64,000 nucleotides of DNA from Ectothiorhodospiraceae bacterium. Lineage in GTDB: Bacteria > Pseudomonadota > Gammaproteobacteria > GCA-002705445 > GCA-002716945. Each line of letters begins with the position of its first letter. Positions within the stretch are counted from its first letter, which is position 1. The DNA is taken from positions 4,992 to 68,991 of the forward strand of contig BOXR01000005.1 in the NCBI GenBank assembly GCA_019651095.1, given 5' to 3'. The translations under genes and the position numbers were made by a program. Under the pieces are notes generated by a model. The model saw only the letters and a program-made list of their open reading frames with translations. It was not told where the DNA came from and did no database searches. Below, in pieces: positions 1,641 to 31,569 of the stretch.

Positions 1641-3403
1641 AAGGATGCAATGAAATCAATTGAGGAACTATTTAACAATAAATTTATAACAAAAAAGAGT
1701 ATTATTTTCACAGGTGATGGTGTATCACGAGGAATATGCATTGGGCAAGCAATCGTCGTATATAAGGACAATATTGATCATGCGCCATCTTTTATAGTAG
1801 AGAATCCAGGTTAATAAAGAATCAAAAAATGTTTTAGACGCAATAAATAAACTTAAAACAGAATATAAAAAATCATCTTCGAAAATAAAAAATAATCCTG
1901 CTATAACAAAATTAATGAATAATACAATCAAGTTTTGTTGATGATAAAAGTTTCAAAGAGAGTGTTCTTAATAAGATAAATAATCAGCAATTCAGCGCAA
2001 GTTGGGCTATATCCTCTGAGTACTATAGTATGAAAAAGTCCTTCGAGGATATCGAAGACAAATATATTAAAGAGAGATTAATTGATATTAAACAAATGAT
2101 TATCAGTCTACTAGAACTCCTTCGATCTAGAAAAAAGTTAGATATTTTCAGCAATAACACTATTGAAAATAAAATCATTATAACTGATGAAATAACACCT
2201 AAGGATATTATTGATATTCATCATAGTAAAGGGCTGGGAGTTATAACATCTCATGGAAGTCGCTCTTCCCACAGCGCAATTTTAAGTAAAAGTTTGGCAC
2301 TTCCTATGTTGGTGAAGGTAGAATCCTCCATCAATATTATTAAAGATGGCGACAAACTTATTATGGATCCTGAAAATCAAATAATAATAATCAATCCTGA
2401 TGAAATTGAACTAAAATATTTTAAAAAAATTCAATCAGAAAACAACTCATTAATAAAATCTTTCAGAAAAACAACTAACAAAAAAGCAATTACTAAGGAT
2501 CGAATAAAAGTAGATGTAATGTGTAATCTTGAGCTTTCAGAAGAGGTAAAGCTTTTAAATGATAGTTCCGATGGAGTGGGTTTATTCAGGACGGAGTATC
2601 TCTATATGAACCGAAATGATTTGCCCACGGAACAAGAACAATATCAAGCTTACAGTAAAGTTTTTAAAAAAGTAAATAATAAGCCTGTGACACTAAGAAC
2701 ACTAGATATCGGTTCTGATAAAGAAGTATCTGAAAATATGAAAGTAGGCCAAGTTGCAAAAAATCCTGCCCTAGGCTTAAGAGGCATCAGATATAGCTTG
2801 TATGAAAAAAATCTTTTTAAAGTCCAAATAAAGGCTATGTTGAGAGCTGCAAAAAAAGGAAAACTTAGAATATTGATACCGATGATCACCACGCTTGACG
2901 AAATCAAAAAAGCTAAAGAACTTATTGATGAAGCGAAAGCTGAACTTATAAAAGAGAAAAAGTCTTTCAGTCATAAATATGAAGTTGGCATTATGATTGA
3001 GGTACCTGCGAGTGCAATTCAGTCAAATGTACTATGTAAACATGTAGATTTTATGTCAATTGGAACTAATGATCTCGTTCAGTACATTCTAGCTATTGAT
3101 AGAATTGATGATGAGGTAGCAAGTTTATATGATCCTACTAACCCAGCTGTATTGCAATTGGTAAAACAAGTTATACAGACATGCAATAAGTCAAAAATAG
3201 ATATCACAGTATGCGGAGAGATGGCAGGTGAGAAAATATATACTAAACTTCTACTAGGTCTTGGTCTGACATCTTTTAGTATGCATCCACAAGCAATACC
3301 TGAGATTAAAAATCTTATAATGCAAACTGATACTAAAGCACTTAAATCAAAAATAAATGCTATCTTAAAATGTAATGACTATGAAGAGATTACAGTTGAT
3401 TGA
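1636..3403 (+). pseudogene. ptsI: Phosphoenolpyruvate-protein phosphotransferase (PTS Enzyme I). The C-terminal 457 aa is intact (2030..3403). The first ~120 codons are split across three frames.
   Basis: ORF 2030..3403 carries EI motifs (GSRSSHSAIL, LGLRGIR, SIGTNDLVQY). Upstream 'MTKDAMKSIEELF..FTGDGVSRGICIGQAIVV' (from 1636) is EI N-terminus in another frame, ending in a stop at ~1813. A second frame switch precedes 'YSMKKSFEDIEDKYIKER'. Confidence 0.65.
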
Positions 3404-3439
3404 ATCTCTCTAGTTTTTACTCGAGGACAATAAAAAATC

Positions 3440-5360
3440 TATAAGTGCCATAGAGCTGTAAAGCTATTATGAGCTTGTTGCCAGACTGCACTATATTGAG
3501 AATCTATTATTGTTTCATCAATTTGCTTCTCCTCTGTGCGCAGGTAGCAATGAAGAAATATCGCCTTTTCTGTAACTTTTGACATTAAATTCATAGTAAC
3601 CTGAAAGCTTTTAAATACTTTTTCTCTCTTCATTTTCTGCTCATCACCCATTAGCCCAAACATCGTTGTTACAACATGGCTCCATCAACAGCAGAACCGG
3701 TATTTCCTAATTCAACATTTTCAAAATTTATCAGTGTTATTTATCGGTTCATACCATTTGGACAGATATTTTAAGTTTAAATAAAATTTTGATGTTTTAT
3801 TATGAGTTGAATTTTGTTACCATTCAACCCGGCAATTGTAATTGTTAAATCATCCCTTTTTATCTCGGAGGGTTTTGATATCGCTGCATTGACATGGATG
3901 AAACAATTACACAAACCATTTATACGGAACGATAAATTCTTGCAAACATTTTATCTCATCATGGGTTTTTTCCCATCATTATCAAATCAACCATCCCGAG
4001 AGTACTTTGGCGTGTCAGATATACCCTCCCTCTTTTAATGGTTGATCTCTGAAAAAAAAATTGCATGCCCCCAAATTTATACATCGGTCTCAAATGAGAC
4101 TCTGGTTCTTTTTAATTTTTTTTAAAAATCATAGCCAAAGTCCTATTAACATATGTCTTGGAAAGAATTTTTTATCAAATTTTTATACCAATATTTGTAT
4201 AATTCTTTAAACTTGGAAATTAATATCATTAATGACTTGAAATCTCTCTTATTCATATTTTCATTATAAGCCTTAATTATATCAACAATTTTTAAAAAAC
4301 TTTTCTTTCATATCAAAGGCGGATAATCTTATGTTTTTGTTTAGAACATTAATTACCAACCTTTGTCTAATGCTTTTAACAATCAGTACAATTTTTTTTA
4401 AGCTCATCCTATCATAATCCAAAAAAAATTTCTGAAAAAGCCTTTAATTTTTGCTTTGCCATATTCCTGCATAAATTTGTAGGGTATAAAGCTGACATAA
4501 CTGATCCTCAAATTCAAGAAATTTTTTTCCAAAAGATTTTTTAAGGGAAATTTCCCCCGAATGTGACCATGATTCCGCTGTAAAAAATTGCTTCCCCTCC
4601 AACACCCCAAATTTGGGAAATCCATTACCAAGAGCTTTTCTACCATGACAACTCGGGAGTTCCCCTATGTTGATAACCAAACCATCACCCCGTCCCACAA
4701 AACCCGACTGAACCTCTCTATCATAGAAAATATTTTGTTTATTGCAGATTTCCCTTACTTCTTGAAGATTGCTTTGTCACAGGAAAAATTCCGCCCCCCA
4801 CCTTTAATGGTTCAAAAAGAATTGCGATACTCATCATGATTTTAAAAAATTCTTTTTGGCTTAATTTATTAAATTCAAATCTAAGAGCCGTCCAAAAGGT
4901 CCAAATGGGCATGAGAAGTGTGCGATGTTCCCCATGCCCCATAGTCCCTTCCTAAGTTTTGCATTACTAAAATTTTGGGTTTATCCTATCATGACCTATT
5001 TTCTGCAATTTTAATGCGCCTCAAAAAGATTCTGCCCGGTTCAAAAAAAAACATTTCCCTTCTTAGTTGACATATCTTTTTGCAATTTTTTGTCCAAAAA
5101 GAAATGCATTGGAAGTATGAATCAATTTTGCGACTGTTTTGACTGTTTTGCTTTATGGGGTGAGTGACCCAAGCTTGTAACTGCTAAACCACGGTATCAA
5201 AATACTGCTTTCCCTCAGATCATATAAAATAAATTCCTTCCCCCTTGTAAAGGTAACTTTTCCTATTTAGGTAGGCATGATTTTGCTGGTCATAATCTAC
5301 ATTCTCGCACGAAAAGAGTAATTCTATATCAAATTGTGAATAAAGCTAGCTGTTAATAAA
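3440..5360. other. Roughly 1.9 kb with no long ORF on either strand, only 60-85 aa fragments. Likely decayed gene remnants downstream of ptsI.
   Basis: The six-frame track shows only short overlapping ORFs. Homopolymer-rich sequence. One fragment has a GHGEH motif that could be a metallo-beta-lactamase-fold remnant. Confidence 0.4.
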
Positions 5361-5443
5361 TAATGCATTTTGATTATATTTTTGTGTATTTTTGGTGCAA
5401 TATCCCTAAAATGATGAGGTTAACGTTAAATTATAGGGGAAAA

Positions 5444-6483
5444 ATGAAGAATCTATTAAGTGCACTTGCGCTATTATTTTTCCAGTACAGCATTTTCTGG
5501 TGGACAAGGATGAGTGATTCGCAAGGAAACAGTATGTCAGCAGCCAAGGCATCTTCAGGGGTACATTTTTATGGAAGGCTTTACATTGGATATGATAGCA
5601 CTACCGGTGATACGGCTAGATTAGATGATGGCGGCAATAAAAGCAGACTTGGTCTTAAAATCAAATCGGGAATATTGTTGGTAACCTAGAATATAAATAC
5701 GATATTGGTGATGGCACAAGTGGTGCAGGTGCCAACTGTGGAACTCATCAGCAAATGGATGTCAAACATTTGATCTTCATGTCGGTAATTTAGGTTTTAT
5801 GACACCACTCGGTTACATTGGTGCAGGTACTTATGAAGCTCCTTATAAAACTATGGGGATGTTTGATGAGAATATGGATACAGCCATAGCCCTGAATTCT
5901 CATGGCGGCTTTAGTCAAGGCCAAGGTGGTATCGCGGGTAACTTTGAAGGTGCAATAGCATATCATGCCATGATGGGGCCACTTGAAATTGGTTATATGT
6001 ATGCTGCAACAGACAACACAGCAAATGATGTTACCAATACAGACCGTGGTGATTATTCAATTGGTGTGACAGTCAAAGACATGTTACTAAATGGTTTAAC
6101 TTTTGGATACGCAAGATATCATGACGATGAAGTATCTGGAGCAGAAGGCGAGAATAATGATAAATTTTTTGCCTCTTATCAAGTTATGCCGAACATGGGT
6201 GTATTCTTGTCTTTAGAGGATCTTAGCGTGGTAAATACCTTTATTGCCTCCAGTGGAACCGATGGAAAGATTAATACTTATGGCATTCATTACTCTTTGG
6301 GTATAGCAGATATTCAGCTTGTAAGTGCTGAAGGGATTCTGATGGTGCAGCTAACCAAGATTATCAAACACGCAGCATCTCTGCTAAGATTAATCTTAGT
6401 AAGAATTCAGACATTACATTGGATACACTAAGCAAGACTTTGACGAAGATGGCTCAGACTTTAGTACATCCGGCATGGTCTAA
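5444..6483 (+). pseudogene. Outer-membrane porin (Gram-negative porin family) in two fragments plus a shifted C-terminus. Paralog of the intact porin at 31768..32862.
   Basis: 5363..5689 has a signal peptide 'MKNLLSALALL' and 'FYGRLYIGYDST...SRLGLK'. 5799..6431 continues beta-barrel-like sequence. Similar to the intact porin ('KLYGRLWAQYSNEKTDGS', 'GRIGFKGKS'). Confidence 0.55.
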
Positions 6484-7251: not shown

Positions 7252-9019
7252 GTGTGTGGAATTTGTGGAGAATTTAAATTTATCTCAAAGAGTTTTGATA
7301 ATGAAAAGCTCAATAATTTAATGGATTCTATCTCCGCAAGGGGAAATGATTCTCAAGGAAGATACATGGATGATGATGTTTTTCTTGGTCATCACAGACT
7401 TGCAATAATCGATACGAGTAATAAGTCTAATCAGCCAATGCAAGTTGGAAAATATGTAATTGTTTTTAACGGAGTAATATTTAATTATCGTGAGTTGAGA
7501 AGTGCTCTTATTAAAAAGGGGCACTCATTCTCATCTTCTGGTGATACTGAGGTAATTATTCGATCTTATATAGAATATGGCTCTGATTGTGTAAATTACT
7601 TAGACGGAGTATTCGCATTTTGCATTTATGACACAGAAGATAAAAAACTTTTTCTAGCAAGAGATCGTATTGGTATAAAGCCTCTATACTTTCTCCATGA
7701 ATCTGGACAATTGTACTTTTCATCTCATATGAAAGGAATTCTCAAGAATATGGTTAAAAGAAAAGTTAATCCAATTGCACTCAATTACCAATTTACATTG
7801 CATTCAGTCGTGCCAGCACCACACACTATAATCGATAATATTCAGAAATTAGAACCTGGTTATACAATTACAGTTCATAAATCAGGGAGAATAGATAAGA
7901 CTAGATATTTTAATATCGATGAAATTCAGCTATCAAAATATAATACTAATGAAATATATGAAAATATATCTTCACTACTAGCCGCCGCAATTGAAAAAAG
8001 AATTAGTGTTGCTGACGTTCCTGTGGGTATCTTGTTATCAGGTGGCTTAGACTCAAGTCTAATTACTGCGATATCTAAAGAATATAAAAATAACTTAAGT
8101 ACCTACTCCATAGGTTTTGAGACAATAAATAAGGAGGAGGGAAATGAATTCTACTACTCTGATCTAGTTGCTAATGATTTAAAAACATCACATGAAAAGT
8201 ATAGTGTGACTAGCCTTGATTTATTAAACAGTTTAGATGATGTTATCATGAGTATGAGTGAGCCCATGTTTAGTCAGGACTCATCAGCATTTTATTTATT
8301 AGCTAAAAATGTCTCTAAATCAGCCAAGGTAGTACTGAGTGGTCAAGGTGCTGACGAGGTCTTTGGTGGTTATTTCTGGTATGAGAAAATTATGAGGGAA
8401 AAAGACCTTAGTAGTATAGATACTCTCATAAAATATTATTTTGATAGATCATATGACAATTATAAAACAATTATACATAGTGACTATGTCTCTGAAAACT
8501 ATGCATCAAACGACATAGAATCTAGGCTAAAACAAATGGATCCGAGCTTGAGCATTTTAGATAAAAGTTTTCCGCCTAGAGCTCTCCATGTTTATTATTG
8601 ATGATCCGGTAAAAAGAGTAGATAACATGACTATGTCTCATTCTCTTGAGGCTAGAGTTCCGTTTTTAGATATTGATCTCATTAGTTTTATGCTCTCTGT
8701 TAAAAGTGAAAAGAAAATAGAAAATGGCGAAAAATGCTTTTTTAAAAGAGGTCTCTAAAAAATATTTGAACAATAAAATAATTAACAGGAGAAATTCTAC
8801 TTTCCTGTCCCACCACTTAAAATAATTAAAGATAAATTCTTTGACTATTGCAGAAAAACACTGTTATCAGAATCTGCTTTAGAGAGAAATTTATACAACA
8901 CGTCATATATTAATAAAATTCTTGAAAAACCAAATGAACACTTTACAAATCTTAATGGAAATGAGTTGTGGCACTTTACCTTACTAGAAAGATGGTTACA
9001 ACTAAACATTGATCAGTAG
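7252..9019 (+). pseudogene. asnB: Asparagine synthetase (glutamine-hydrolysing) AsnB. The N-terminal 449 aa is intact; the C-terminal third is split by at least 3 frameshifts.
   Basis: Ntn start 'MCGICG', 'HRLAIIDTS', 'SGGLDSS'. After the stop at 8601 the sequence continues as 'DDPVKRVDNMTMSHSLEARVPFLD', then 'KKYLNNKIINRR', then 'TFPVPPLKIIKD...LLERWLQLNIDQ', each in a different frame. Confidence 0.7.
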
Positions 9020-10378: not shown

Positions 10379-10556
10379 GCGGAGCTTCAGATTACATAAT
10401 CATAGTTATACTTATCGCAACACTATACTCATGGCTAATATACGGATATATTTTTAAACAAACTCTTGATTGCACAACTTTTATGGGTTTATCAATATCA
10501 TTCCTTTACAGCATGATAATCGGCTTCATGCTGATATTAGTTCTCTCCCTTCTTGT

Positions 10557-11875
10557 ATGAAAGTTCATATTCTAGGTATTTCCGGAACCTTCATGTCAGG
10601 TATAGCTATTCTTGCCAAAAAAAAGGGATATGAAGTAACAGGCTCTGATACCTCTTGTACGATCCAATTAAGTCTATTTTAGAGAAAGAAAATATATCTG
10701 TGATTAAAGGACATAAAATCAAAGATATCAAAGATAAAGATTTAATTATAATCGGTAATGTAATGTCACGAGGAAACCCGATAATCGAGTATATCTTAAA
10801 AAACAATATAAATTACATCTCAGGACCACAATGGTTGTATGACAATATCCTTAAACATAAAAAAGTAATAGCTGTAAGTGGCACGCATGGAAAAACTACA
10901 ACTACTGCGATGATTGTTCATATTATGAAAAAAAATAAAATGAACCCGAGTTATTTAATTGGCGGATCTCCAAAAGGTAATTTTAAATCAGTTTCTCTTA
11001 CTAGCTCAAAATATTTTGTTATTGAAGCAGACGAATATGACACTGCGTTTTTTGATAAAAGATCTAAATTTATCCATTACAATCCCTTTCTAGCTGTTAT
11101 AAATAATATTGAATATGATCATGCTGATATTTTTGAAAATATAGATGAAATAATAAAATCTTTTAGTCATATGATTAGACTTATACCATCTGACGGTACA
11201 ATAATTATTAATAAAAATGATCATAATATTAAAAAATTACTTCAAAAAGGATATTGGTCGAAGTTAATAACTGTAGATTCAAAAAAATCGTCAGGGGATT
11301 TTAATTTGATAAAGAAAAAACAATATATGCTTAAATTCAATAATAAAAACTTTTTATTGCCAGTGAATATCATAGGAAAGCATAACTACATAAATGCTAT
11401 AACTGCAATTGCAGCATGCAGAGAACTCAAGGTTCCAATAAATACTCAAATTAAGGCTCTATCAAGTTTTAAAGGCGTCAGTAAAAGAACAGATCTAGTT
11501 TGTGAGATTGATGGAATTAAAGTTTTTGATGATTTTGCTCATCATCCAACTGCCATTAAATCTTCGATTAACTCAATTAAGGACACATTCACAGGGAAAA
11601 GGCTTTTAACTATATTCGTACCTGGCTCAAATTCGATGAGACTTGGGGTACATAATGATCAACTTGTACCATCGCTGAAAAAATCAGATAGAGCGCTAGT
11701 TTTAACCAGATTCAAGCCATTAAAGAGATTAATGGGAAATAACATTAAAATAAATGTTATTGAAACTGAAGCTCAAATAAGAGAATATCTCGACAAGGAA
11801 AATAATTTCGATATTGTTCTCGTGCTTTCAAACAGGAATACTGAGAACATATTACGATACATTAAAAATGGATAG
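10557..11875 (+). pseudogene. mpl: UDP-N-acetylmuramate:L-alanyl-gamma-D-glutamyl-meso-DAP ligase (murein peptide ligase Mpl). One frameshift after codon ~33.
   Basis: 'MKVHILGISGTFMSGIAILAKKKGYEVTGSD' in frame 1, then 'YDPIKSILEKE...VSGTHGKTTTT' in frame 2. The junction 'acctcttgtacgat' is explained by loss of one T from a TTT run. Confidence 0.7.
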
Positions 11876-16134: not shown

Positions 16135-16989
16135 ATGTCTACAATTGCTATAATTATAATTGCACTCATAATAGAATATTTTTTCGATGATTTGAAAGAG
16201 TATAGGAAAGATAGTTTGCTACTAAGAGGGTTTAACTATTTTGAAAATAAAATAGATAAAGAAAAATACTCTAAGAATTCTATTTGTATCACATACACAT
16301 TGATTATATTAATTTTGTCAATGGCTCTAGTATCGATAGCTGATTACTTGTCTCATATAATTTACTTTGCTGTAAGTCTTGTAATCATGCTTTTTTGCTT
16401 GAGAACAAATCAATTTAATAGAGATATAGAAGAGCTTAAGATCAAATTAGAATTTAATAAAGAAAATATCGACAAAAGCGATTTATTTTCATTGTGTCCT
16501 AATCTTAAACAAACGCGTGCAAAATCTAACTTGAGTGTCCTTGTGATTAAAAATCTATTTTTTAACTCAATAAGGAATACTTTTGCTATTATCTTTCTAT
16601 TCTTACTTTTAGGTGCGCCTGCGGCTTTAACATATAAGTTATTAGATTTGATGATTTATTCTGAGACCTTCAAAGTCAATGCACAGACAAAGAATAATTT
16701 GAAAAAATACATTTACTTCATTGACTACATTCCAGTTAGACTGACTTCATACTGTTTATCTATTGTAAGTAATTATGATCGAGTTATAGATAGGATTAAT
16801 AGCCTTGAGCTGTCGAATAATCCTTACCTTAGTAACATAGAATATGTCAATCAAACTGGTGAATCAGTTTTTGATGCATCAAAAAGTGAATCAGATCAAA
16901 TAATACAAATTCAAAATATATTAGCAAGAACACTAATAGCTTGGTTAAGCGTGATCTTTCTTCTTGGAATCACTGGTGTTTTTATCTGA
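16135..16989 (+). CDS. ampE: AmpE inner-membrane protein (CobD/CbiB-related).
   Basis: 284-aa polytopic membrane protein immediately downstream of ampD, the canonical ampDE pair. Same length as E. coli AmpE. Confidence 0.65.
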
Positions 16990-17667
16990 AAATGAATAAT
17001 ATTTAAGACCTATTTGCACATCAGGTCTGTTATTTTTACTTCTCCAAATATTTGTATCCCTTAAAGAATAGACACAGCCGCAATATTCCTGCATATAAAA
17101 ATTCTCTGATTTTGATACAAGTAACATGTTTTCGGAGCCATTATTTTTTCTCCAATTATATGTCCAGTATTCAATGTTCTTGAATTGCATGGCTGCTTTA
17201 ATGCCAGATTCATTAATCTGATCCATATCCTTCCATCTTGAGATTCCCAAAGTACTTGAAATGATTGAGAAGCCATGTAGCTCAGCATATTGTGCTGTTT
17301 TAAGAAATCTCATATCAAAACATGTGGAGCATCTCTTGCCCCTCTCAGGTTCCCACTCCTGGCCCTTTGTTTGGTCAAACCAATTCCTCGTATCATAGTC
17401 ATCATCAATAAATGGTATTTTGTGTTTTCTCGCAAACTCTAAATTCTCATTTTTCCTCAAAAGATACTCTTCTCTTGGGTGAATATTTGGATTATAAAAA
17501 TATATTGTGTAATCTATGTTAGATTCTTTTAGGCGCAGCATAATGTCTCCTGAGCATGGAGCACAGCAGCTATGTAAAAGTAGTCTTTTATGGCCTTTGG
17601 GTAATTCTAGTTTGTTCATATTAAATATTAAAAAATCTACAGCTGTTATTATATATCTCTTCAGCAA
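16945..17667 (-). CDS. queH: Epoxyqueuosine reductase QueH (DUF208).
   Basis: 'HSCCAPCS' and 'CGCVYS' cysteine motifs. Probable start MNKLELP at ~17619. Confidence 0.75.
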
Positions 17668-18418
17668 GAATATTTTTATCTTTTTGCAAAATACTTGCTA
17701 CTGCATCTAGTACATAGATTAAGTTACTCGGTTCATTATACCTCTTATTTTCAATAGGGTAATTAAATGGCATTAAATATGGAGAATCTGTCTCTATCAT
17801 AAGCTTATCAGATGGCACGTAACTTATTAAATCATGGAGATGATACCCTCTATTTGGATCCGTTATCCAGCCAGTGATTCCAATGTAACATCCTAGATCC
17901 AAATAACTTGATAGACTCTTTTTATCACCAGTAAAACAGTGGACAACAATATCCTCTACTAGATGACTATATTCTTTTAAGAGTATAATAAAATCATCAT
18001 GAGCATCCCTTTCATGAAGGAACATTGGTAAATCAATTGATGTTGCAAGTTCAAGATGTTTTGTAAAACAATTTATTTGATCATTTTTACTTGAATAATT
18101 TCTTTTATAATCAAGTCCACACTCTCCAATAGCTTTAACATAGTCGTGTTCGCATAATTCGAGCATTTTATCGATATGACTATCTTTAAAATCCTTTGCA
18201 TTATGTGGATGAAAACCAACTGTTGTATATAAAAGGTCTGGCTCTCGATCAATCAGTTCTTTTGCTTGATAAGTGTCGTCTATATGCGATGAAGTGATGA
18301 TTATTTTACGAATATTATTTTCTTTTGATTTAGTGATAACTTCATTAAAATTTTTTGAAAGCTGACTATCCAGAAGATTTGCGCCAATATCAAATAGAGG
18401 CGTAACAGAATTAGCCAT
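17621..18418 (-). CDS. TatD-family metal-dependent hydrolase/DNase.
   Basis: TatD motifs ('GFHPHNA', 'ECGLDY', 'HCF'). 265 aa. Confidence 0.8.
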
Positions 18419-19301
18419 CTAGTTGTTTTAAAACTGATTCAACTGTTTCGCCAATCACTGAAGGATTCTTAGCTATTGTTATCCCTGCCGCTTTAAGAAT
18501 TTCTACTTTCTCAGCCGCAGATTCACCACCAGCACTTACAATGCCCTGCATGCCCATCCTTTTACCTTTGGGTGCTGTAAGACCTGCTATGTAAGCAATT
18601 ACAGGTTTCGATACATTCTTTTTAGCATATTCAGCTGCTTCTGCCTCTTGAGGGCCGCCTATTTCACCGATCATCAGTATAACTTTAGTCTCATCGTCAT
18701 CTTCAAATTTAGCTAAATGATCTCTAAACGCACTTCCGTTGATTGGGTCACCACCAATACCTACACTTGTAGATATACCAATTCCTAAATCTTTCATTTG
18801 TTGAGCTGCTTCATAACCAAGTGTACCTGAGCGTCCTATAACTCCAACATTTCCCTCTTTATATATATGACCTGGCATAATCCCTAGCATGCATTTCCCT
18901 GGACTTATTACACCTGCACAATTTGGTCCAACCATTGTCATTCTATCCTCAGCTTTATACCTTCTCATATATCTTTTTACTTTAATCATGTCATGAGCAG
19001 GGATTCCATCTGTTATTGCAACGAGAGTTTTAATTCCAGCGTCTGCAGCTTCCATTGCAGAATCAGCAGCAAATGCTGGCGGCACAAATAGAATACTTGC
19101 ATCGGCTCCAGTCTCTCTGACTGCATCCTTTACTGTGTTAAAAACTGGACGATCTAAATGTGTTTGACCTCCTTTGCCAGGTGTGACTCCGCCAACGACA
19201 TTTGTTCCGTACTCAATCATTTCCTCTGCATGAAAAGTACCGATCTTGCCGGTAAAACCTTGAATAATTATTTTAGATTCTTTAGTGATTAGTATTGCCA
19301 T
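18411..19301 (-). CDS. mtkB: Succinyl-CoA/malate-CoA ligase alpha subunit. Context favours malate thiokinase MtkB.
   Basis: CoA-binding and ligase-CoA domains ('GFTGKIG', 'GPNCAGVISP', phosphohistidine loop 'MGHAGAI'-like 'MQGIVSAGGES'). Adjacent to mtkA-like and mcl. Confidence 0.75.
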   Translation of the reverse strand: MAILITKESKIIIQGFTGKIGTFHAEEMIEYGTNVVGGVTPGKGGQTHLDRPVFNTVKDAVRETGADASILFVPPAFAADSAMEAADAGIKTLVAITDGIPAHDMIKVKRYMRRYKAEDRMTMVGPNCAGVISPGKCMLGIMPGHIYKEGNVGVIGRSGTLGYEAAQQMKDLGIGISTSVGIGGDPINGSAFRDHLAKFEDDDETKVILMIGEIGGPQEAEAAEYAKKNVSKPVIAYIAGLTAPKGKRMGMQGIVSAGGESAAEKVEILKAAGITIAKNPSVIGETVESVLKQLDG

Positions 19302-19307
19302 GGAAAT

Positions 19308-20477
19308 TTATGCTCCAAGCTCTTTTAGTGCTTTTACAGCTTTATTTGCTGCATCTTCCAGAGTGAAGGCTTCTGTATAGGTAATTTTACTGTCTTTAAG
19401 TATTTTTATACCTTCATCAACATTTGTGCCAGCCAACCTGATCACTAATGGTTGATTGATTGTTATTTGATTAAGTGCATCAACAATTCCTTGAGCTACC
19501 CAATCACATCTATTTATTCCAGCAAAGATATTTATTAAAATTACTTTTACTTTGGGGTCACCTGAAATCAGCTTAAAGGCTTTAACAAACTTTTCAGGAG
19601 TCGCTCCTCCGCCTACATCAAGGAAGTTTGCAGGTTGTCCACCAGCGAGCTGAATCATATCCATCGAAGCCATAGCTAGACCGGCCCGTTTATTATGTTG
19701 CCAATGTCGCCATCAAGTGGAATATAGTTAAGACCTCGATCTGCAGCATAAGTTTCTTTTGGATCTTCTTGAGATTTATCTCTAAGTTCAGCCAGTTCAG
19801 GATTTCTGTATAATGCATTGTCATCGAATGACATTTTGCAGTCTAGGGCGAGTACATGGTCATCCCCAGTTAAAACTAAAGGATTTATCTCAACCATAGT
19901 AGCGTCAGATGTACTGAAAGCTTTATACGCACCCAAGATAGCTTGAGCACATCTATTAATCGCTTTCGATTCCAAACCTAGTGCAAAAGCAATCTCCCTT
20001 GCCTGATAGCTTGCATTCCACTGCAGCTTCAATCCTTGTCTTAATAAGTGATTCAGGCTTTTCTTCTGCAATCTCTTCAACACTCATTCCTCCCTCAGAG
20101 GATGCAACAACCATGATGCTCTCTGTACTTCTGTCAAAAACCAATCCAAGATAAAATTCTTTTTTGATATCTGTGCCCTCTTCAACATAGATTCTTTGAA
20201 CTGTTTTACCTTCAGGACCTGTCTGATGGGTTACGAGCGTCTTTCCAAGTAGCTTATTAGCTGCATCAGATACTTCTTGTTCTGATTTACAAACAATTAT
20301 ACCGCCAGCTTTCCCTCTAGCTCCGGAGTGTATTTGTGCTTTGACTACCCATAGATCTCCTCCAAGTTCAGTCGCCCTATCTTTTGCATTCTCTGGGCTA
20401 TATGCAACTCCACCTTTAGGTATTGATACGCCAAATCTAGATAGTATTTCTTTTGCCTGATACTCGTGAATATTCAT
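19308..20477 (-). pseudogene. mtkA: Malate-CoA ligase / succinyl-CoA ligase beta subunit (ATP-grasp) split into 3 ORFs by 2 frameshifts.
   Basis: N-term '[28 protein letters not shown]', middle '[20 protein letters not shown]', C-term '[20 protein letters not shown]'. Strong collinearity with methylotroph MtkA as recalled from memory. Frame switches near 20045 and 19675. Confidence 0.75.
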
Positions 20478-21418
20478 TATTTTTTAGATTGTATAAGGTT
20501 GTCTATGTTGACAATATTTTCTGCCATTCGCTCAGATGCGGCATCGATCATTCTACCATCCAATTGAGCGGCTCCTTTCCCCTCTGCAGCAGCTTTTGCT
20601 AGTTCTTCAATAATTCTTTTTGCTTTATCAACTTCAGCTTGAGGTGGTGAGAATACATCATTTGCATGTTCGATTTGTGATGGATGAATTGCCCACTTAC
20701 CCTCTATTCCTATTGCAGCTCCACGTTTTGCAGCTTTAATATATCCATCGGGGTCTTTTATATCTCCAAATGGACCATCTATTGGTCTAAGACCGTAAGC
20801 TCGACATGTTGCTACTAACTTTGACAATCCATGATGCCATTGGTCACCTGGATAATCCGGATTCAAACCACCAATTACAACTGTTCTCGCTCTAAGGCTA
20901 GCTGCGTAATCGGCTACACCAAAGTGAAGCGCTTCTAGCCTGTCAGATGATTGAGCAATATCCTCAATATTTACCATGCCAAGTGCACTCTCAATTAGAC
21001 ACTCAAGGCCAACTTTATTCTTTAACTCTCTTTCTTGTTCGATTTGAGTGACCATACAATCAACCATATAGACATCATCTCTGACACCAACCTTCGGTAT
21101 TAGAAGTGTATCGATAAATTCACCCGCTTGAATCATCAACTCAACTACATCTCGATACATGTAATGCGTATCCAGGCCATTAATTCGAACAGAAATAGTT
21201 TTACCGTGACCTCGCCAATCTAAATCCTTGAGAGCGTTTATTACATTTTCCCTAGCAGTTACTTTATCGTTAGGAGATACGGCATCCTCTAAGTCTAGAA
21301 AAATATAATCCGCGTCTGAATTCAGAGCTTTTTCAAACATTTTTGGTGAGGAACCAGGTACGGCCAATTCGCTTCTTTGTAATCTTGTTTTTGCGCTTTT
21401 ATATGATGTGTGACTCAT
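20477..21418 (-). CDS. mcl: L-malyl-CoA/beta-methylmalyl-CoA lyase (HpcH/HpaI-CitE family).
   Basis: 313 aa. 'RSELAVPGS', 'FLDLEDAV', '[14 protein letters not shown]', '[13 protein letters not shown]' closely match Mcl1-type malyl-CoA lyase as recalled from memory. Confidence 0.75.
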
Positions 21419-21530
21419 AATCTATTATAATTTGACTTGATATACCCCTATATATTCGCTATAACTCGATAAGTTTTGAGGAAGTATATATGATAATTTT
21501 AAAATATGCAAAATACATGGATGTAAAGAG

Positions 21531-22443
21531 ATGACCAAATATGCTCTAGAAATTGAACAACTTAATAAAACTTATAGGAATGGTGTAAAGGCCCTAAAAG
21601 ACATAAATCTCAATGTCGAGGACGGAGATTTATTTGCATTTCTTGGTCCAAATGGGGCTGGTAAGTCTACAGTTATCGGAATTATTACAACACTTGTCAA
21701 CATCACATCAGGTACAGTAAAAGTATATGGAAAAGACATTCGTCAATTTCCTGAAGCAACAAAAAAAATGATTGGGGTTGTCCCACAAGAGTATAATCTT
21801 AATCAGTTTATTCCGATTCAAGAGACAATGATTAATATTGGTGGATATTTCGGTTTAACAAAAAAACAATCTATGAATAAAACTCAAGAGCTTTTTGAAG
21901 ACCTTGGTATATGGCATAAGAGAGAATGTACACCGAGAGAATTATCTGGCGGGATGAAAAGAAGACTACTTATAGCCAGAGCTTTAATACATAGTCCCAA
22001 ACTTCTAATTTTAGATGAGCCTACTGCAGGAGTTGATACGGAACTGAGACTTACAATGTGGGACTTTTTCAAAAAAATAAATAATGATGGTGTCACAATT
22101 ATATTAACAACTCATTATCTAGAAGAAGGCAGAGCGTTTATGTAAAAATTTATCAATCGTTCATAAAGGAGAAATTGTTCAGAACTCACCAATGAGAGAT
22201 ATAATCGCTTCAAAGAGAAAGCATACCTATATCATACGAACAGATTCAACTATTAATGATATAAATGCATTTGGTGACAATATTATAAGTATAGATAATA
22301 ATTCATATGAATTGACTGTAGATAATAAAGTTTCAATTTCGGAAATAATTAATTCATTCAATAACAACAAAATAAATGTAATTGAAATACTAAGTAAACG
22401 AAATAAACTAGAGGAACTATTTATGGAGCTTACTCAAGAATGA
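21531..22443 (+). pseudogene. ABC-2-type transporter ATP-binding protein. One frameshift near 22133 splits it into 204-aa and 83-aa pieces.
   Basis: Walker A 'GPNGAGKST', signature 'LSGGMKRR', Walker B 'ILDEPTAGVD'. The C-terminal domain continues as 'RLCKNLSIVHKGEIV' in another frame. Confidence 0.65.
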
Positions 22444-23213
22444 TAAAACAGCTATACATAACACAACTGACAACGATCTTCAGAAAAGAATTCTTTCGAT
22501 GGTCACGTATTTGGATACAGACTATCTTACCATCAGTAATTACAATTTTTTTATACATAACTATTTTTGGGAATTTCATTGGATCACGTTTGGGAGATAT
22601 CAGTGGGCTGCCTTATATACAATTCATACTGCCAGGTTTGATCATAATGCCTATCATTTCAAATTCATACATGAACGTCGTTGGTTCTTTTTATAGTGGT
22701 AGGTTTCAAAAAAGTGTTGAGGAATTATTTGTATCCCCACTTTCAAGTCACGTAATTTTGATCGGGTATGTATTGGGTGGTGTATCAAGAGCTTTTGTAG
22801 TGGGCTTCGCGGTATATCTAGTCTCACTAAGTTTCACAAATATACCAATACATAATGTATATCTTGCTATTTTTCTAACACTTCTTGTTAGTTTTTTATT
22901 TTCCATCCTTGGATTTATTAATGCTGTTTATGCAAAAAGTTTTGATGATATAAATATTATTCCAACGTTTGTTTTAACTCCGCTTACATATCTAGGTGGA
23001 ACCTTCTACTCAATATATAACCTTCCTGAAGCTTGGCAAACAGTATCATTGTTTAATCCTATAGCTTATATGGTAAGCGCATTTAGGTATGCATTTATTG
23101 GTATAGAAGAAATGAATACATTTAATGCGATAGTAATGATGTTCATATTAATCTTTTTCATGTATTCTCTAGCTATATACCTTTTAAATAGAGGTATTGG
23201 AGTAAAAAACTAA
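22440..23213 (+). CDS. ABC-2 family transporter permease.
   Basis: 257 aa with 6 TM helices. Translationally coupled to the upstream ATPase. Confidence 0.7.
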   Translation: MIKQLYITQLTTIFRKEFFRWSRIWIQTILPSVITIFLYITIFGNFIGSRLGDISGLPYIQFILPGLIIMPIISNSYMNVVGSFYSGRFQKSVEELFVSPLSSHVILIGYVLGGVSRAFVVGFAVYLVSLSFTNIPIHNVYLAIFLTLLVSFLFSILGFINAVYAKSFDDINIIPTFVLTPLTYLGGTFYSIYNLPEAWQTVSLFNPIAYMVSAFRYAFIGIEEMNTFNAIVMMFILIFFMYSLAIYLLNRGIGVKN

Positions 23214-23335
23214 CTCTCACGAGGTTGGGAAAGTCAGTGAATACATAATCTGACACTGCCCCCGCAACGGTGAACAACAGTCCGAATGCCAACGAGGTGA
23301 GACCTACTTTAGCGGTGGTGCTATGAAAGAAATCT
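23210..23335 (+). promoter_or_regulatory. Cobalamin (B12) riboswitch candidate in the leader of a btuB-like gene.
   Basis: GC-rich island in an AT-rich background: 'GGGAAAGTCAGTGAATACATAATCTGACACTGCCCCCGCAACGGTGAACAACAGTCCGAATGCC...GGTGGTGC' resembles the E. coli btuB leader core (GGGAAtCCAGTG..GAAtCTG..ACTGCC..GCAaCGGTaA). Sits ~200 nt upstream of a TonB-dependent receptor. Confidence 0.6.
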
Positions 23336-23535: not shown

Positions 23536-25308
23536 ATGAACTTTAGAAAAATTATTTTATTAAACGTCCTATTTACATTTTTCAGTCTCACACAGGCAAG
23601 TGAAACATTAAACCCAATTGTAGTAGGCAATTCAATCTCACCAATAGATATCCATACTTCGCCTGCATCTATGGAAGTGTTCACTAGCTCAGATATAGAA
23701 AGAGAGGCTTCGCTGACATGCAAGAATTATTGAGCTCTATAAGCTCTATAAATATAACTTCTAACGGAGGAATTGGACAATTAACATCTATTTTTACAAG
23801 AGGCACTGAGAGTAATCATACAAAGATTATACTTGATGGGGTTGAGCTAAATCCAGGTACACTTGCTCTAGCACCAATACAAAACATTTCAATTGACTCT
23901 ATTGACAGGATAGAAATTATAAAAGGATCATCATCAGCGCTTCATGGAGCTAGAACTATTGGTGGTATTATCAACATAAAGACTAAAGAGAATTCAAATT
24001 CAATAAAAATATCGACTGGATCATGGTCGACCAATACTACATCGTTGAGTCAAAATTATAATCTAAATGGATTCAAGATGAATATTAATGCTAACAGAAA
24101 AGAATCGAAATCTAAGACTGCGGGTCGTTATTCTAATAAAAGGCATGCATATAATACAGATAACATAAGTATCGGTTTGAGCAAGGAGATAAATGATTAT
24201 GTTTTTCTACAAAGCTATACAACTCGAATGGAAATACTCAATACGACAGCTTTGGTACTAATGAGAATCAGGACCGTGATGACTACTTTTACAACTTCGG
24301 GCTTAAGAAATTTATTAATGAAGACATTTTTGAAATAAAACTTGTAGGTTCTCAAAATAGGATTATCCAGAAAAAGGTGGGTTCAAACGACTTCACGGAT
24401 ACTCTCAGGGATATTTATGATTTTTCCTACACAAAAGTAGGGAGTAATGTTGTACAAAAAATTGGATTTATTTATACAAAAGAGCATATGAGTGAACTTG
24501 TATATGGTGGAACAGCCTATGAAAGTCGATTCACTGCACAACACAATAATAAAGAATATTTTTATCAGAATGAAATGTCATATCCATCATATCGATTGAA
24601 CTTCGGGGCAAGACATACAGATCACTCACAAGCTGGACATTTTACTTCTGGGAACTTTGGAGTATCTTTACTTTCAGATAATAATGTATATTCATTTAAT
24701 ATTACCAAATCCTATAGACCAGCAGATGCAACAGACCTTTATGCGACTGATGGATCTGGTGATGCAACACATAAACCTGAAGAGTCGTTCTCTTATGAAT
24801 TTGGAGTCAAAAGATATGTAAATGAGAATACATTTATCAGAGGAACGGCTTTTAAAACGAGATTGAAAAATCTAATTGAGGCGGACATTAATTCCCAGAT
24901 ATATCTATCTGATGCATTGATAACGGGTTTAGAAATGAGAGTACAATCAAACTACGTCCTTTCATATATGATATCGGTTACACATATATGAATCCAGAAG
25001 ATACAAAAAATAATCAACCCTTAACAAAACGAAGCAAGCATAAGCTGAATGCAGATGTAATTTATAATTTTAAACCAAATAGTTCTCTGAGATTTAATAT
25101 TTTAGCTGAAGGTACTAGAAAAGCGTCAGCATTTGCAGATATAAATTTAGGCTCATATTATATAGCCAATGTAAACTATAGGACACGACTTGATACAGGT
25201 ACAATCTCTTTAAGCATGAAGAATATTTTCGATAGACCTTACAGGACGTCTCATGGATACGATACTCTGGATAGGTCACTCTTTGTTACATATACGTTAG
25301 ATTATTGA
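23536..25308 (+). pseudogene. btuB: TonB-dependent outer-membrane receptor, putatively BtuB-like, in 4 pieces with at least 3 frameshifts.
   Basis: Signal peptide plus TonB box (23536..), plug domain 'ILDGVELNPG...IEIIKGSSSALHGARTIGGIINIKTK', beta-barrel fragments, C-terminal 'RSLFVTYTLDY'. Total span ~590 codons. Confidence 0.65.
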
Positions 25309-25323
25309 TAGAATGGCATCTAA

Positions 25324-25848
25324 ATGAATAGAACTATCTTTACTGAATTATCGATATTCTTACTTCTCATTGTAAGTAAATTATCAAGTACTTTCATAAA
25401 CATATCGCCTTTCTTAGCAGTGATTATAATCGGATCGTATTTTATTCACAGTAAGCATAGATTATTGTTAATGATCTTTGCCGCACAACTTTTCTCTGAT
25501 TTAGTCTATGGCTTACATGTATCTAATTTATCAATCTATCTGTCTTACTTCATTATAGTTTTAGTTATCTATAGAAACGAAGTAATATACTCGATAACCA
25601 AAAGTATGTTGTATGGGCTGCAAGCTAACATAATATTTTTTATTGTCACTAACTTCGGTCACTACTTAGCATATAATAGTGTCTATACCACTAGTCTTTT
25701 AGCTGAGACTTACAGTCGAGGATTATTGTTCGGTATTAATCTACTACTCTCAACGATTGTTTTTATCATAATCTTCCATGCCTTACTAGCTGTCAGCAGA
25801 AAACAGCTAGTAAAGTCAAGGAGTACGAGGGGAGAGCCTAGAACTTGA
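25324..25848 (+). CDS. Hypothetical membrane protein (5 TM) downstream of the btuB remnant.
   Basis: 174-aa hydrophobic ORF with no recognisable motif. Possibly cofactor-transport related, from context only. Confidence 0.3.
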
Positions 25849-27044
25849 GTTGACCACCGGTTTTATATTCAGTAACACGTGTCTCAAAGAAATTTTTCTC
25901 TTTATTTAAGTCCATCATTTCAGACATCCATTCGAAAGGATTTGTTGCGCCTGGATATTGATGAGGCAGCCCAATACTCTCAAACCTTCTGTTTGCAATG
26001 AACTTGATATATTCCTCAAACTTTTGAGCGTCCATCCCTAACATAGGTTTTGGCATAGTATCTCGACCGTATTGAGTCTCCAGCTCAACTCCTTTGGTGA
26101 TCAGATTAATCATTTCTTGTTGAAACTCCTCAGTCCATAAGGTCGGATTTTCATTTTTGATCTGATTAATTACATCAATTCCAAAGTTCATATGCATAGA
26201 CTCGTCTCTTAAAATGTATTGAAACTGTTGCGACACACCTGTTAATTTATTTCTCCTTCCAAGTGACAAGATCTGTGTGAATCCCACATAGAAGAAGATG
26301 CCTTCGAAGACGACATAAAAAGCAATTAGGTCTCTTAAGAGCCTCTGATTGTCTTTATGTGTCCCTGTCTTAAATGTAGGGTCACCAAGACTCTGAGTAA
26401 ATGGAAGAGCCCACTCTGCTTTAGTTGCAACTGCTGGAAGCTCTCGATACATGTTAAATATCCTTGCTTCATCTAATCCTAGTGATTGAACACAGTATTG
26501 ATACGCGTGAGTATGTATTGCCTCTTCGAATGCTTGTCTCAATAAATATTGTCTACACTCAGGATTGGTTATATGTTTGTAAACTGCTAAGACTAGATTA
26601 TTTGCAACCAAAGAGTCAGCTGTTGAGAAGAATCCAAGGTTTCTCTCAACCATTTCTCTTTCCTCTGGTCTAAGTGCTTGAGGGTCGTTCCAGCATTTGA
26701 TGTCATCATGCATAGGTATCTCTTCAGGCATCCAGTGATTCGCTGAGCCGTCTAAATATTTTGCCATGCCCACTTATACTTAAAGGGTACGAGTTGATTT
26801 AAGTCAGCTCGACAATTAATAATCGCCTTATCATCAACTTGTATTCGCTTAGCGCCATGTTCGATGTTTTCCATTCCTGTGAACCAACGCCTGTTGATTT
26901 AGGCTCAGGCATATGGTCAACATTTGAATCAGCTATGTGGTCATTACTGATTGATTCTATATTTTGTGCTTCATGCACTTTTTTCTCTGGCACTATGTCT
27001 GGTTTACTTAGTGCGTCATTTATTGGGTCGTCCCAGTTATACAT
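25838..27044 (-). CDS. nrdB: Class Ia ribonucleotide reductase beta subunit NrdB, Pseudomonas-type. The catalytic core 25838..26773 is intact. The N-terminal extension carries 2 frameshifts.
   Basis: Core 'NHWMPEEI...[16 protein letters not shown]...[12 protein letters not shown]...[10 protein letters not shown]'. Upstream frames give '[25 protein letters not shown]', which matches the Pseudomonas-type N-extension. Frame switches near 26775 and ~26880. Confidence 0.8.
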
Positions 27045-27184
27045 AATTATCTCCTTTTAATTTTTCTCAGCTTCTCTTAAAGCTTGAATTCTTTCGTTTT
27101 CATATTGTTTAAGTTTCATAATCACCAATATAGTCGCAGCGACTGCAATTAAATAGATTACAAAATCTGGTATATATATATTCA

Positions 27185-30202: not shown

Positions 30203-31569
30203 TTACATTAGAAAAGTTGCAATTCCCAGTAAAGATACGAACCCGACAACATCTGTAATAGTTGTCAAGATCACACCTCCGGCGAGGGCAGGATCGATAT
30301 CTAGTTTCTCTAAAATAAGTGGAAGACTGACCCCGCTGATAGCGCCAATGATAAGATTGATCATAATAGCAGCTGCAATTACACCTCCGAGAAAGACACT
30401 GTCAAACCAAAAATAGACAATGGCTGCAATAACGCCAGACCAAATTATTCCATTCAGTAATCCGATTGCAGATTCTTTAAGGATTAAAAGTTTTGAGTTA
30501 GATGAACCTATTTGATCAAGTGCTTGTGCCCTGATAACGAGTGCAAGACTTTGACTTCCAGCTATACCTCCCATACTAGCAACAATTGGCATCAATATCG
30601 CTAGTGCTACAACTTTCTCAATCGTTGCTTCAAAATTCCAATAGCAGCAGCTGCAAGCAGTGCTGTTAAAAAATTAGCACCGAGCCAAAGTGTACGTCTT
30701 TTAGTACTTTGTATGACTGGTGCAAATATATCATCGTCTTTTTTTAGACCCGCCATATTCAATACACTTTCATCAACCTCTTCTCTGATGACATCAACAA
30801 CATCATCGACTGTGATCCTACCAAGTAAGAACCCTTGACTATCTACTACGGCTGCTGAGACAAGATCGGCATTTTCAAATCTTCTCGATACTTCATGTTC
30901 TCCAAGATCTGGATCTATTGGATCATCATCCTTTTGCATGATTTGAAAAAAGTATTTTGATGGATCTGCCACGAGAACATCTTTTAGAGACACAAAACCA
31001 TGATACATATTAATTCTGTCAGTCACAAAAATTTTATCAGTTTGATCTGGCAAGCTTTTCATACGTCTTAGATAGTGAAGAAGGACATCAACTGTAACAT
31101 TGCTTCTAATTGTAATTGTATCAGTATTCATTAGCCCGCCTGCTGTGCCATCTTCAAAGGACAATACCTTTTCAAGCCTTTCTTGATTTTGCTTAGTTAA
31201 ACTTTTTAATGCTTTTCTTGTTAAGTGATCAGGAAGTGATTGAATGATATCTGCCAAATCATCGGTATCTAATTTCTCAGCTATTTTGACAAGCCCTTCT
31301 GTTCCATCTCTATCGATAAGTTCATCGATAAGATACTCTCTTACTTCATCATTGAGCTCAGCAAGAGTCTCACCTTTATTTTCATCACTTACTAATGTCC
31401 AGAGAAGATCTCTTCTGTTTCTTGGCGTACTTTCAATTACATCTGCAATCTCAGATGGATAGAGAGAATTTAATAAATTTTTAGCTTGGATGACAGCACC
31501 GCTATCAAGAACTTCTGAGAGTTGATCGAGAGTGACAGTATTGTCTTTGTGAATGCTTTCTGCAGGCAT
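30203..31569 (-). pseudogene. mgtE: Magnesium transporter MgtE split by one frameshift between the cytosolic N/CBS domains (320 aa) and the TM domain (130 aa).
   Basis: N-terminal ORF carries MgtE_N and CBS sequence. The downstream ORF 'MPIVASMGGIAGSQS...' is the MgtE TM domain in another frame. Junction at ~30600. Confidence 0.65.

Follow-up and report, generated by a model that had tools for sequence, protein, structure and literature searches.

A stand-alone mcl-mtkA-mtkB operon in a marine gammaproteobacterium, with ligase lesions that very probably reflect consensus errors

Described systems and the layout of the locus

In M. extorquens AM1, malate thiokinase (MtkAB, ADP-forming, SucCD family) and malyl-CoA lyase (Mcl) serve the serine cycle, and members of the same two enzyme families, with the same beta-then-alpha order of the ligase subunits, are encoded in the 64-kb stretch of DNA analysed here (the window). 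Serine-cycle genes also flank the module in Ruegeria, where the arrangement is sga-mtkAB-hpr-glyA, and in Sinorhizobium. A further point of reference is SucCD of E. coli (PDB 1SCU/2SCU), which shares fold family and phosphohistidine chemistry with the pair (identity ~48% for beta and 58% for alpha), although it falls in a separate clade with 100% support and carries FGGIVRCDL and RLEGNN where the window-type protein has FAGINRCDW and RLAGTN. Canonical SucCD is linked to sucAB, whereas the Mtk-type pair is linked to mcl. Unlike M. extorquens AM1, the window's host is not a known methylotroph and its genes form a tight three-gene unit, mcl-mtkA-mtkB. Unlike Ruegeria and Sinorhizobium as well, it has no serine-cycle partners close by: no sga, hpr, gck, ppc or glyA was found in the 64-kb window or in its conspecific equivalents, so that the "serine-cycle module" proposed in a first-pass annotation is not supported for this locus.

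We consider it very likely (probability about 0.9) that the locus is an ordinary, functional mcl-mtkA-mtkB operon and that six deletions in mtkA and mtkB are errors of the consensus sequence rather than biology. The host would be an uncultured, low-GC, streamlined marine gammaproteobacterium. By homology, MtkAB would catalyze malate + CoA + ATP <-> L-malyl-CoA + ADP + Pi by way of a phosphohistidine on the alpha subunit, and Mcl would catalyze L-malyl-CoA <-> glyoxylate + acetyl-CoA; together the two enzymes would link malate to glyoxylate and acetyl-CoA, with a direction in vivo that is inferred.

All three genes lie on the minus strand, at the ORF coordinates given to them in the first-pass annotation: mcl at 20477-21418 (L-malyl-CoA/beta-methylmalyl-CoA lyase, an open frame of 313 aa and, as annotated, intact), mtkA at 19308-20477 (malate-CoA ligase beta), and mtkB at 18411-19301 (malate-CoA ligase alpha, an open 296-aa frame with a corrupted active-site loop). 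The stop codon of mcl and the start codon of mtkA overlap in an ATGA at 20477. Downstream, a tatD-family hydrolase gene (ORF coordinates 17621-18418, minus strand) is probably co-transcribed with mtkB, because its first 8 nt overlap the end of mtkB, and it lies outside the metabolic module; the order mcl-mtkA-mtkB-tatD-queH is also found in conspecifics. Upstream, the 112-bp divergent intergenic region between mcl and an ABC-2 transporter ATPase gene (21419-21530) is the presumed promoter region and contains a weak sigma-70-like match at 21512-21483 on the minus strand. In a promoter and terminator scan of 16800-21700, match counts were not above those of shuffled sequences and gave no usable operon boundaries, and an Rfam scan of the window returned no regulatory RNA upstream of mcl. 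The only Rfam element in the window is an AdoCbl riboswitch at 23211-23299.

The ligase pair, which is assigned below to the malate thiokinase type, may have a second role, in that it could be the genome's only SucCD-family ligase and double as the succinyl-CoA synthetase of the TCA cycle. Malate thiokinases also accept succinate, and the conspecific contigs, with lengths of ~0.8-1.03 Mb, point to a genome that is very small. In a SAR86 pangenome table, COG0045 and COG0074 are each reported at roughly one copy per genome in every genus (PMC11582366, Table S5), but this table may rest on a group other than that of the host, which may equally well belong to the low-GC order GCA-002705445, and the operon is not adjacent to other TCA cycle genes. 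On balance, we regard this double role as possible but rather unlikely.

Six single-base deletions in mtkA and mtkB

Within the window, mtkA is divided into three ORFs on the same strand (19956-20477, 19676-20083, and 19308-19673), while it forms one 390-aa gene in all conspecific contigs examined. The first junction (20009-20020, minus strand) contains two window-private 1-nt deletions, namely a GGG shortened to GG at ~20018-20020 and a missing T or C at ~20009, with a net shift of -2; the extra bases are present in all 11 covering conspecific contigs, all of them Illumina. At the second junction (19686-19689, minus strand), a single window-private deletion in a G run at ~19688 turns GGGG into GGG and creates a TAG at 19676, and the extra G is carried by 10 of 10 conspecific contigs. 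The gene had been described as doubly frameshifted; the three reading-frame pieces are indeed in the sequence, but they result from three lesions, not two.

The comparison draws on conspecific contigs of independent origin, taken from Illumina assemblies of Tara, JGI, and other sources, with 10 or 11 contigs covering each mtkA break. They are 97-98.5% identical to the window at the nucleotide level and encode an identical Mcl protein; mtkB is full length (297 aa) in every one that reaches its end, and in one contig it has 295 aa owing to that contig's own 6-nt in-frame difference. The intact MtkA protein is recorded on 376 contigs.

The damage to mtkB is less visible. Three window-private 1-nt deletions within 11 nt (18543-18553, minus strand) are in-frame in sum, and the ORF stays open, while the phosphohistidine loop GKRMGHAGA becomes GKRMGMQG and the catalytic His251 is lost. 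The alpha subunit can therefore not be called intact, as it had been. The histidine, absent from the window sequence, is present in the MtkB of all conspecifics, and the three missing bases are carried by every covering conspecific contig (11 of 11, with five or more contigs across the mtkB breaks). We attribute the missing histidine to three deletions in the consensus and not to the organism; an open reading frame can evidently hide damage of this kind.

In total, six bases are absent from the window, three in mtkA and three in mtkB, and their re-insertion restores proteins of 313 (Mcl), 390 (MtkA), and 297 aa (MtkB). Between the repaired operon and that of one conspecific contig (L082) there are 57 nucleotide substitutions across the three genes. 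Because 56 of these are synonymous, purifying selection on mcl-mtkA-mtkB is judged, from this comparison of sequences, to be strong, as would not be expected of a gene in decay.

The same type of lesion is found throughout the window. We counted 366 private indels in the 64 kb, 327 of them deletions and 39 insertions (~90% deletions), and the deletions are often homopolymer contractions. About 310 fall within the first 6.4 kb (~5% indels), where alignment identity is 80% with 292 gap openings; beyond this stretch they average ~1 per kb and are patchy, with some stretches having none. The genes broken by these indels, nrdB, mgtE, pstC/pstA, mpl, asnB, and argF, are either needed by a free-living cell or intact in every Illumina conspecific. 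Single-base deletions that contract homopolymers are a typical sign of a long-read consensus (Nanopore or PacBio-type) that has been polished too little, and from the error profile alone we infer a long-read origin for the window sequence. The six deletions in the operon, mostly contractions of short homopolymer runs, would then be products of such a consensus, like the errors across the 64 kb.

Taken at face value, the lesions would describe an abundant marine bacterium that is giving up some of its metabolism of glyoxylate and malate, through a recent pseudogenisation in which frameshifts disrupted mtkA, the active site of MtkB was damaged, and the strain lost malate thiokinase but kept mcl. 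The lesions do stand in the sequence as given, and marine populations commonly lose genes at the level of strains. However, none of the 10-11 conspecific contigs shares any of the six lesions, and the nearly complete synonymy of the operon's substitutions speaks against decay. The same lesion type also strikes nrdB, mgtE, pstCA, and mpl; the indel density of the first 6.4 kb would be intolerable for any living genome; and 89% of the lesions are deletions, often in homopolymers. The frameshifts in mtkA are therefore not supported as a biological feature, and we consider genuine gene loss, through a very recent set of real mutations private to the strain, improbable, at odds of roughly one in twenty.

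Read as consensus errors, the lesions have a close parallel in Nanopore metagenome assemblies. Among the conspecific contigs, those labelled "_pilon" were assembled from Nanopore R9.4 data and then polished with Racon and Pilon (PMC13558084), and the set of split genes is random and differs from one such contig to the next. The same paper reports poor Illumina coverage of low-GC gammaproteobacteria, which restricts how far their sequences can be polished. The Great Barrier Reef hybrid assemblies of that study share with the window deletion-biased single-base errors, often in homopolymers, as well as random split genes and a patchy distribution of errors in low-GC genomes wherever polishing with short reads fails. 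The window, with its raw-read-like stretches and ~1 private indel per kb elsewhere, thus carries a lesson on data quality: any pseudogene, split gene or frameshift called from it, or from long-read MAGs of low-GC plankton that resemble it, should first be compared with conspecifics.

Family assignment of the lyase and the ligase

The 313-aa protein of the HpcH/CitE family had been taken for a malyl-CoA lyase, and this assignment is supported by several comparisons. Of the three motifs quoted for it in the first-pass annotation, two are exact and the third differs from the window sequence. It matches Pfam HpcH_HpaI (PF03328) with 141 bits over residues 16-246, in addition to a C-terminal match to C-C_Bond_Lyase. 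Its best PDB match is 5UGR, the malyl-CoA lyase of M. extorquens (380 bits), with 280 bits to the Mcl structure of R. sphaeroides (4L9Y), as against 107 bits or fewer to CitE-type chains. Among the NCBIfam hits the only Mcl model is the haloarchaeal NF041626, at 138 bits with a cut-off of 500, and none is a bacterial Mcl equivalog. At least 23 independent contigs encode exactly the Mcl protein of the window. The lyase is thus of the Mcl type and not of the CitE type, and it is predicted to cleave L-malyl-CoA.

For the ligase, the three window pieces of MtkA match positions 1-154, 157-265, and 270-387 of NF010647, the NCBI equivalog model for malate-CoA ligase beta, with E-values of 1e-47 to 1e-71 and separate scores of 241, 163, and 175 bits. 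The intact conspecific MtkA scores 627 bits on this model, above its cut-off of 604, and that of a relative (L001) scores 636 bits; the repaired window MtkA is 100% identical at the protein level to the copy in L082. The window MtkB scores 420 bits on NF004230. In neighbour-joining (distance) trees of 29 taxa with 200 bootstraps, composed of sequences other than experimentally characterised Mtk, both beta and alpha fall in a 20-member clade of mcl-linked pairs with 100% bootstrap support, apart from the canonical SucCD of E. coli, Acinetobacter, Neisseria, the Sinorhizobium chromosome, and Sphingomonas. The requested phylogeny thus agrees with the earlier identification of the pair as malate thiokinase and not SucCD.

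A loop signature in the beta subunit, derived here from the 29 sequences, follows the same division: FAGINRCDW with RL[AS]GTN is found in 20 of 20 mcl-linked betas, and FGGI[VM][RK]CD with RLEG[TN]N in 9 of 9 canonical SucC. Work on the succinate site of SCS reportedly ties this region to substrate choice, and the signature is suggestive, and suggestive only, of a preference for malate over succinate. A PDB search returned SCS structures only and no solved Mtk structure.

These results bear on the reading of the locus as an ordinary TCA cycle locus, made up of canonical SucCD and a CitE-homologue lyase. MtkA does pass the SucC NCBIfam cut-off (540 vs 370) and MtkB that of SucD (437 vs 336), and in some sources the proteins are named "succinate--CoA ligase" or "citrate lyase beta subunit". 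The SucC score of MtkA, however, is 87 bits below its score on the malate-CoA ligase model, whose cut-off it also passes, and both subunits belong to a fully supported clade in which every pair is mcl-linked. Sinorhizobium sp. M103 carries both an Mtk-type and a canonical SucCD pair, so the two types are paralogues. Moreover, the lyase is far nearer the M. extorquens and R. sphaeroides structures than CitE, and no sucAB, sdh or mdh is present nearby, either in the 64-kb window or in its conspecific equivalents. A canonical TCA cycle locus is accordingly very unlikely, slightly more so than gene loss, and on the curated model, the trees of both subunits, and the loop signature we classify the ligase pair as Mtk-type and not canonical SucCD.

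Programmed ribosomal frameshifting or another form of recoding that reads through the breaks, for which the short homopolymer runs at the junctions and nothing further would speak, is rejected as scarcely credible, since the conspecific genes are contiguous and encode the protein in one frame, the required shifts differ in size and direction, and the mtkB lesion is no frameshift in sum and yet destroys the active site.

Distribution and comparison with marine relatives

The intact mcl-mtkA-mtkB operon is widespread among the bacteria of the marine plankton. The order mcl-mtkA-mtkB occurs in about 70 of the best 80 related loci, SAR11 included, and the set is conserved across the lineage; together with the number of contigs encoding MtkA, this contradicts the first-pass view of it as unusual in an AT-rich gammaproteobacterial background. 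What remains as biology once the errors are set aside is a tight mcl-mtkAB operon that has no serine-cycle neighbours and that is conserved and apparently under strong purifying selection in very abundant marine heterotrophs, SAR11 among them. Our search of the literature on malate thiokinase and malyl-CoA lyase in SAR86, SAR11, and Pelagibacter found no discussion of this operon in marine plankton.

We tentatively suggest, as an idea that is more speculative than probable, that the stand-alone mcl-mtkAB of the host and of SAR11 is not a remnant of the serine cycle; it might act as the sole ligase or, running in reverse, as a substitute for malate synthase, and the operon might have been exchanged between lineages. 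As sole ligase, an Mtk-type enzyme would work in the TCA cycle as well as in malyl-CoA metabolism. In the reverse direction, glyoxylate + acetyl-CoA + ADP + Pi -> malate + CoA + ATP would conserve ATP, which would suit energy-starved oligotrophs. If the suggestion is right, the operon has apparently been exchanged by the two heterotroph lineages that are most abundant in the surface ocean.

The comparison with SAR11 (Pelagibacterales) is the closest available outside the lineage, with amino-acid identities of ~80% (Mcl), 73% (MtkA), and 79% (MtkB). Single-cell genomes of this group show identical gene order and spacing of mcl-mtkA-mtkB, and their ligase subunits form sister clades to those of the window's lineage with 100% bootstrap support for both beta and alpha. 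The SAR11 set is likewise stand-alone, with his genes on one side and a HIT-family gene on the other, and it differs from that of the window in belonging to another bacterial class and in having other flanking genes.

Broken and intact ligase genes

The mcl-mtkA-mtkB operon lies on the reverse strand at 18411–21418. An open mcl frame (20477–21418, −) encodes a 313-aa protein matching the HpcH/HpaI family, and mtkB is read as a 296-aa ORF (18411–19301, −) matching succinate/malate-CoA ligase alpha subunits. Between them, mtkA is found as three pieces in different frames (19956–20477, 19676–20083, and 19308–19673, all −), which match positions 1–154, 157–265, and 270–387 of the NCBI malate-CoA ligase beta model NF010647 (E-values 1e-47 to 1e-71). 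The stop of mcl and the start of mtkA overlap, a gap of 6 nt separates mtkA from mtkB, and mtkB shares 8 nt with tatD; the neighbours also include an ABC-2 exporter, a B12-riboswitch-controlled TonB receptor, and queH. By the ORF calls and NF010647 matches, the first-pass annotation located the operon and its three-piece mtkA correctly for the sequence as given; of the three motifs that it quoted, two agree with the window and one differs slightly from the 13 residues actually read there. The GC content of the operon is 40.2%, vs. 34.0% for the whole window, a difference that might stem from strong amino-acid conservation or from a foreign origin.

A protein identical to the window's Mcl occurs on many independent metagenome contigs, 23 of which were taken, giving 10 usable loci from Tara, JGI, and other Illumina assemblies (97–98.5% nucleotide identity to the window). 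In every usable locus mtkA is a single 390-aa gene, and mtkB encodes 297 aa wherever the contig reaches the gene end, apart from a single contig in which an in-frame difference of its own leaves 295 aa. The nearby genes for an ABC ATPase (303 aa) and the TonB-dependent receptor (591 aa) are likewise whole in the conspecific contigs and split in the window. Base-by-base comparison located the window-private deletions (−): single bases in mtkA at ~19688 (GGGG to GGG), ~20009, and ~20018–20020 (GGG to GG), and three bases of mtkB within 18543–18553, each missing base being present in all 10–11 contigs covering the site. Because the three mtkB deletions sum to an in-frame change, the ORF stays open, although the loop GKRMGHAGA becomes GKRMGMQG and His251, which corresponds to the phosphohistidine of E. 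coli SucD (loop GKRMGHAGAII), is removed. The alpha subunit, first described as intact, is therefore not intact in the window sequence.

When the six bases are put back, Mcl (313 aa), MtkA (390 aa), and MtkB (297 aa) are all full-length without internal stops. Compared with the related contig L082, the repaired genes differ at 16 (mcl), 15 (mtkA), and 26 (mtkB) nucleotides, corresponding to 0, 0, and 1 amino acids, respectively. That 56 of these 57 substitutions are synonymous indicates that the operon was kept under strong purifying selection in the lineage leading to this genome. Such a substitution pattern would not be expected of genes that had long been dead. The breaks are thus real as text and almost certainly an artefact as biology, and pseudogenization of the frameshifted mtkA is not supported, given the whole gene in every usable conspecific locus and the restored 390-aa frame.

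Indel errors across the window

Defining private indels as those at which at least 70% of the covering conspecific contigs, collected across the window, disagree with it, we counted 366 (327 deletions and 39 insertions). About 310 of them, mostly deletions, fall within 1–6400, where identity to an Illumina conspecific scaffold is 80% with 292 gap openings; this first 6.4 kb is close to raw long-read quality and essentially unpolished. The ptsI, argF, aminotransferase, and porin genes are unreadable there. The remaining 57 average about one per kb and are patchy, concentrated at 18–30, 36–38, and 56–58 kb, with indel-free stretches at 12–18, 32–36, and 46–56 kb. Single-base indels of the kind seen in mtkA split other genes that are whole in same-species Illumina scaffolds, including argF, asnB (7252–9000), mpl (10470–11875), nrdB (25838–27044), mgtE (30203–31569), pstC/pstA (35712–38283), an alanine/sodium symporter gene (42559–43889), and genes at 56042–56927 and 57945–59272. 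The error profile of the window is that of an under-polished long-read consensus. Its probable source, judged from exact protein matches, is a DDBJ MAG with locus tags CM15mP53.

An AdoCbl-II (cobalamin) riboswitch is present at 23211–23299 (+; 52 bits, gathering threshold 36.5), and the TonB-dependent receptor gene behind it (23536–25308), which encodes 591 aa in conspecifics and is broken into at least four ORFs in the window, probably serves uptake across the outer membrane under B12 control. The stretch from the riboswitch to the receptor start codon contains three private deletions. In addition, nearly all conspecific contigs covering the spot carry a 42-aa ORF between nrdA and nrdB (window ~27050–27180; called at 4404–4532 of contig L081 and 18524–18652 of contig L092), which has no Pfam match.

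The long-read "_pilon" contigs of the same species (L092–L101, L103, L105–L107, and L109–L111; 0.25–1.03 Mb) come from Nanopore R9.4 assemblies of Great Barrier Reef samples, for which Racon and Pilon were used as polishers (PMC13558084). According to the same paper, Illumina reads under-represent low-GC gammaproteobacteria several-fold, which explains patchy polishing. Which genes are split is random and differs from one of these contigs to the next (e.g., rpoN, ptsI, argF, asnB, mpl, yhdP, tldD, and nhaA), so that frameshift "pseudogenes" of this species keep arising in public data as artefacts of assembly. The main value of the case is as a warning about the sequence quality of the window.

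Identity of the lyase and ligase

Against crystal-structure sequences, Mcl scores 380 bits with the malyl-CoA lyase of M. extorquens (5UGR) and 280 bits with R. sphaeroides Mcl (4L9Y), vs. at most 107 bits with CitE-type proteins. For the intact beta subunit, the malate-CoA ligase equivalog gives 627 bits, above its cut-off of 604, and the SucC model gives 540. Neighbour-joining trees (200 bootstraps) were built with annotated malate-CoA ligases beside mcl or serine-cycle genes (Sinorhizobium, Phyllobacterium, Ruegeria) and with canonical sucCD of E. coli, Acinetobacter, Neisseria, the Sinorhizobium chromosome, Sphingomonas, and others. The mcl-linked beta subunits, 20 in all, group together with 100% support, apart from nine others, and all 20 mcl-linked alpha subunits likewise form a 100% clade vs. 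eight canonical ones; both subunits of the window belong to the mcl-linked clades. Sinorhizobium sp. M103 carries one mcl-linked and one canonical pair, indicating that Mtk-type ligases and SucCD are paralogues. A loop separates the two groups of beta subunits perfectly, reading FAGINRCDW and RL[AS]GTN in the mcl-linked proteins, including that of the window, and FGGI[VM][RK]CD and RLEG[TN]N in canonical SucC. This loop reportedly lines the succinate site in succinyl-CoA synthetase structures, a lead rather than a test; a PDB search returned no Mtk structure. The Mcl scores, equivalog, trees, and loop together bear out the original identification as malyl-CoA lyase and malate thiokinase.

A sucC-sucD-annotated pair on a Phyllobacterium plasmid (L123, 1501–4194), flanked by an acetate-CoA ligase family gene and by the PEP carboxylase gene ppc, groups with canonical SucCD and carries the loop FGGIMRCD, so adjacency to ppc is not enough to call a malate thiokinase.

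Distribution and metabolic context

The order mcl-mtkA-mtkB is kept in ~70 of the best 80 related loci, the partial ones being mostly short contigs that end early, with a handful well-flanked yet lacking mtkAB. A homology scan found at least 588 relatives, and the species' intact MtkA is on record on 376 contigs, named malate-CoA ligase subunit beta by JGI. The operon thus has an existing annotation, is widespread and conserved, and, contrary to the first-pass view, is not unusual in an AT-rich gammaproteobacterial background. Related loci occur in the window's own lineage (88–95% amino-acid identity), in ~36 SAR11 and alphaproteobacterial single-cell genomes (~80%, 73%, and 79% identity for Mcl, MtkA, and MtkB), and in Gemmatimonadota, Methylococcaceae, Nitrosomonas, Gallionella, Thioglobus, and Roseovarius. 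In all three proteins the window lineage groups as sister to SAR11 (copies L004–L039), the two ligase subunits receiving 100% bootstrap; identity with the proteins of other gammaproteobacteria is ~70% or less. This position suggests that the operon may have been exchanged between the two lineages; alternatively, the sequences may be attracted by their shared AT-rich composition.

Judging from their families, MtkAB would activate malate to L-malyl-CoA via a phosphohistidine at the expense of ATP, and Mcl would cleave L-malyl-CoA to glyoxylate plus acetyl-CoA; each step is presumably reversible. Cleavage might supply glyoxylate, e.g., for glycine synthesis, while in reverse the pair might assimilate glyoxylate, with the energy of the thioester retained in ATP. 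According to a pangenome table for SAR86, the SucC and SucD families are each represented by about one gene per genome (PMC11582366). Should the organism belong to SAR86, the Mtk-type pair might be its only SucCD-family ligase, a reading that is rather improbable overall. Source labels give Gammaproteobacteria or Ectothiorhodospiraceae, and the GTDB order GCA-002705445 is a candidate besides SAR86.

The first-pass proposal of a serine-cycle module does not hold locally: by Pfam content, the conspecific loci spanning the whole window contain no class-V aminotransferase, hydroxypyruvate reductase, glycerate kinase, PEP carboxylase, or SHMT. The window operon differs in this from Ruegeria, where mtkAB is located between sga and hpr-glyA, and from Sinorhizobium, where a class-V aminotransferase gene precedes mcl.
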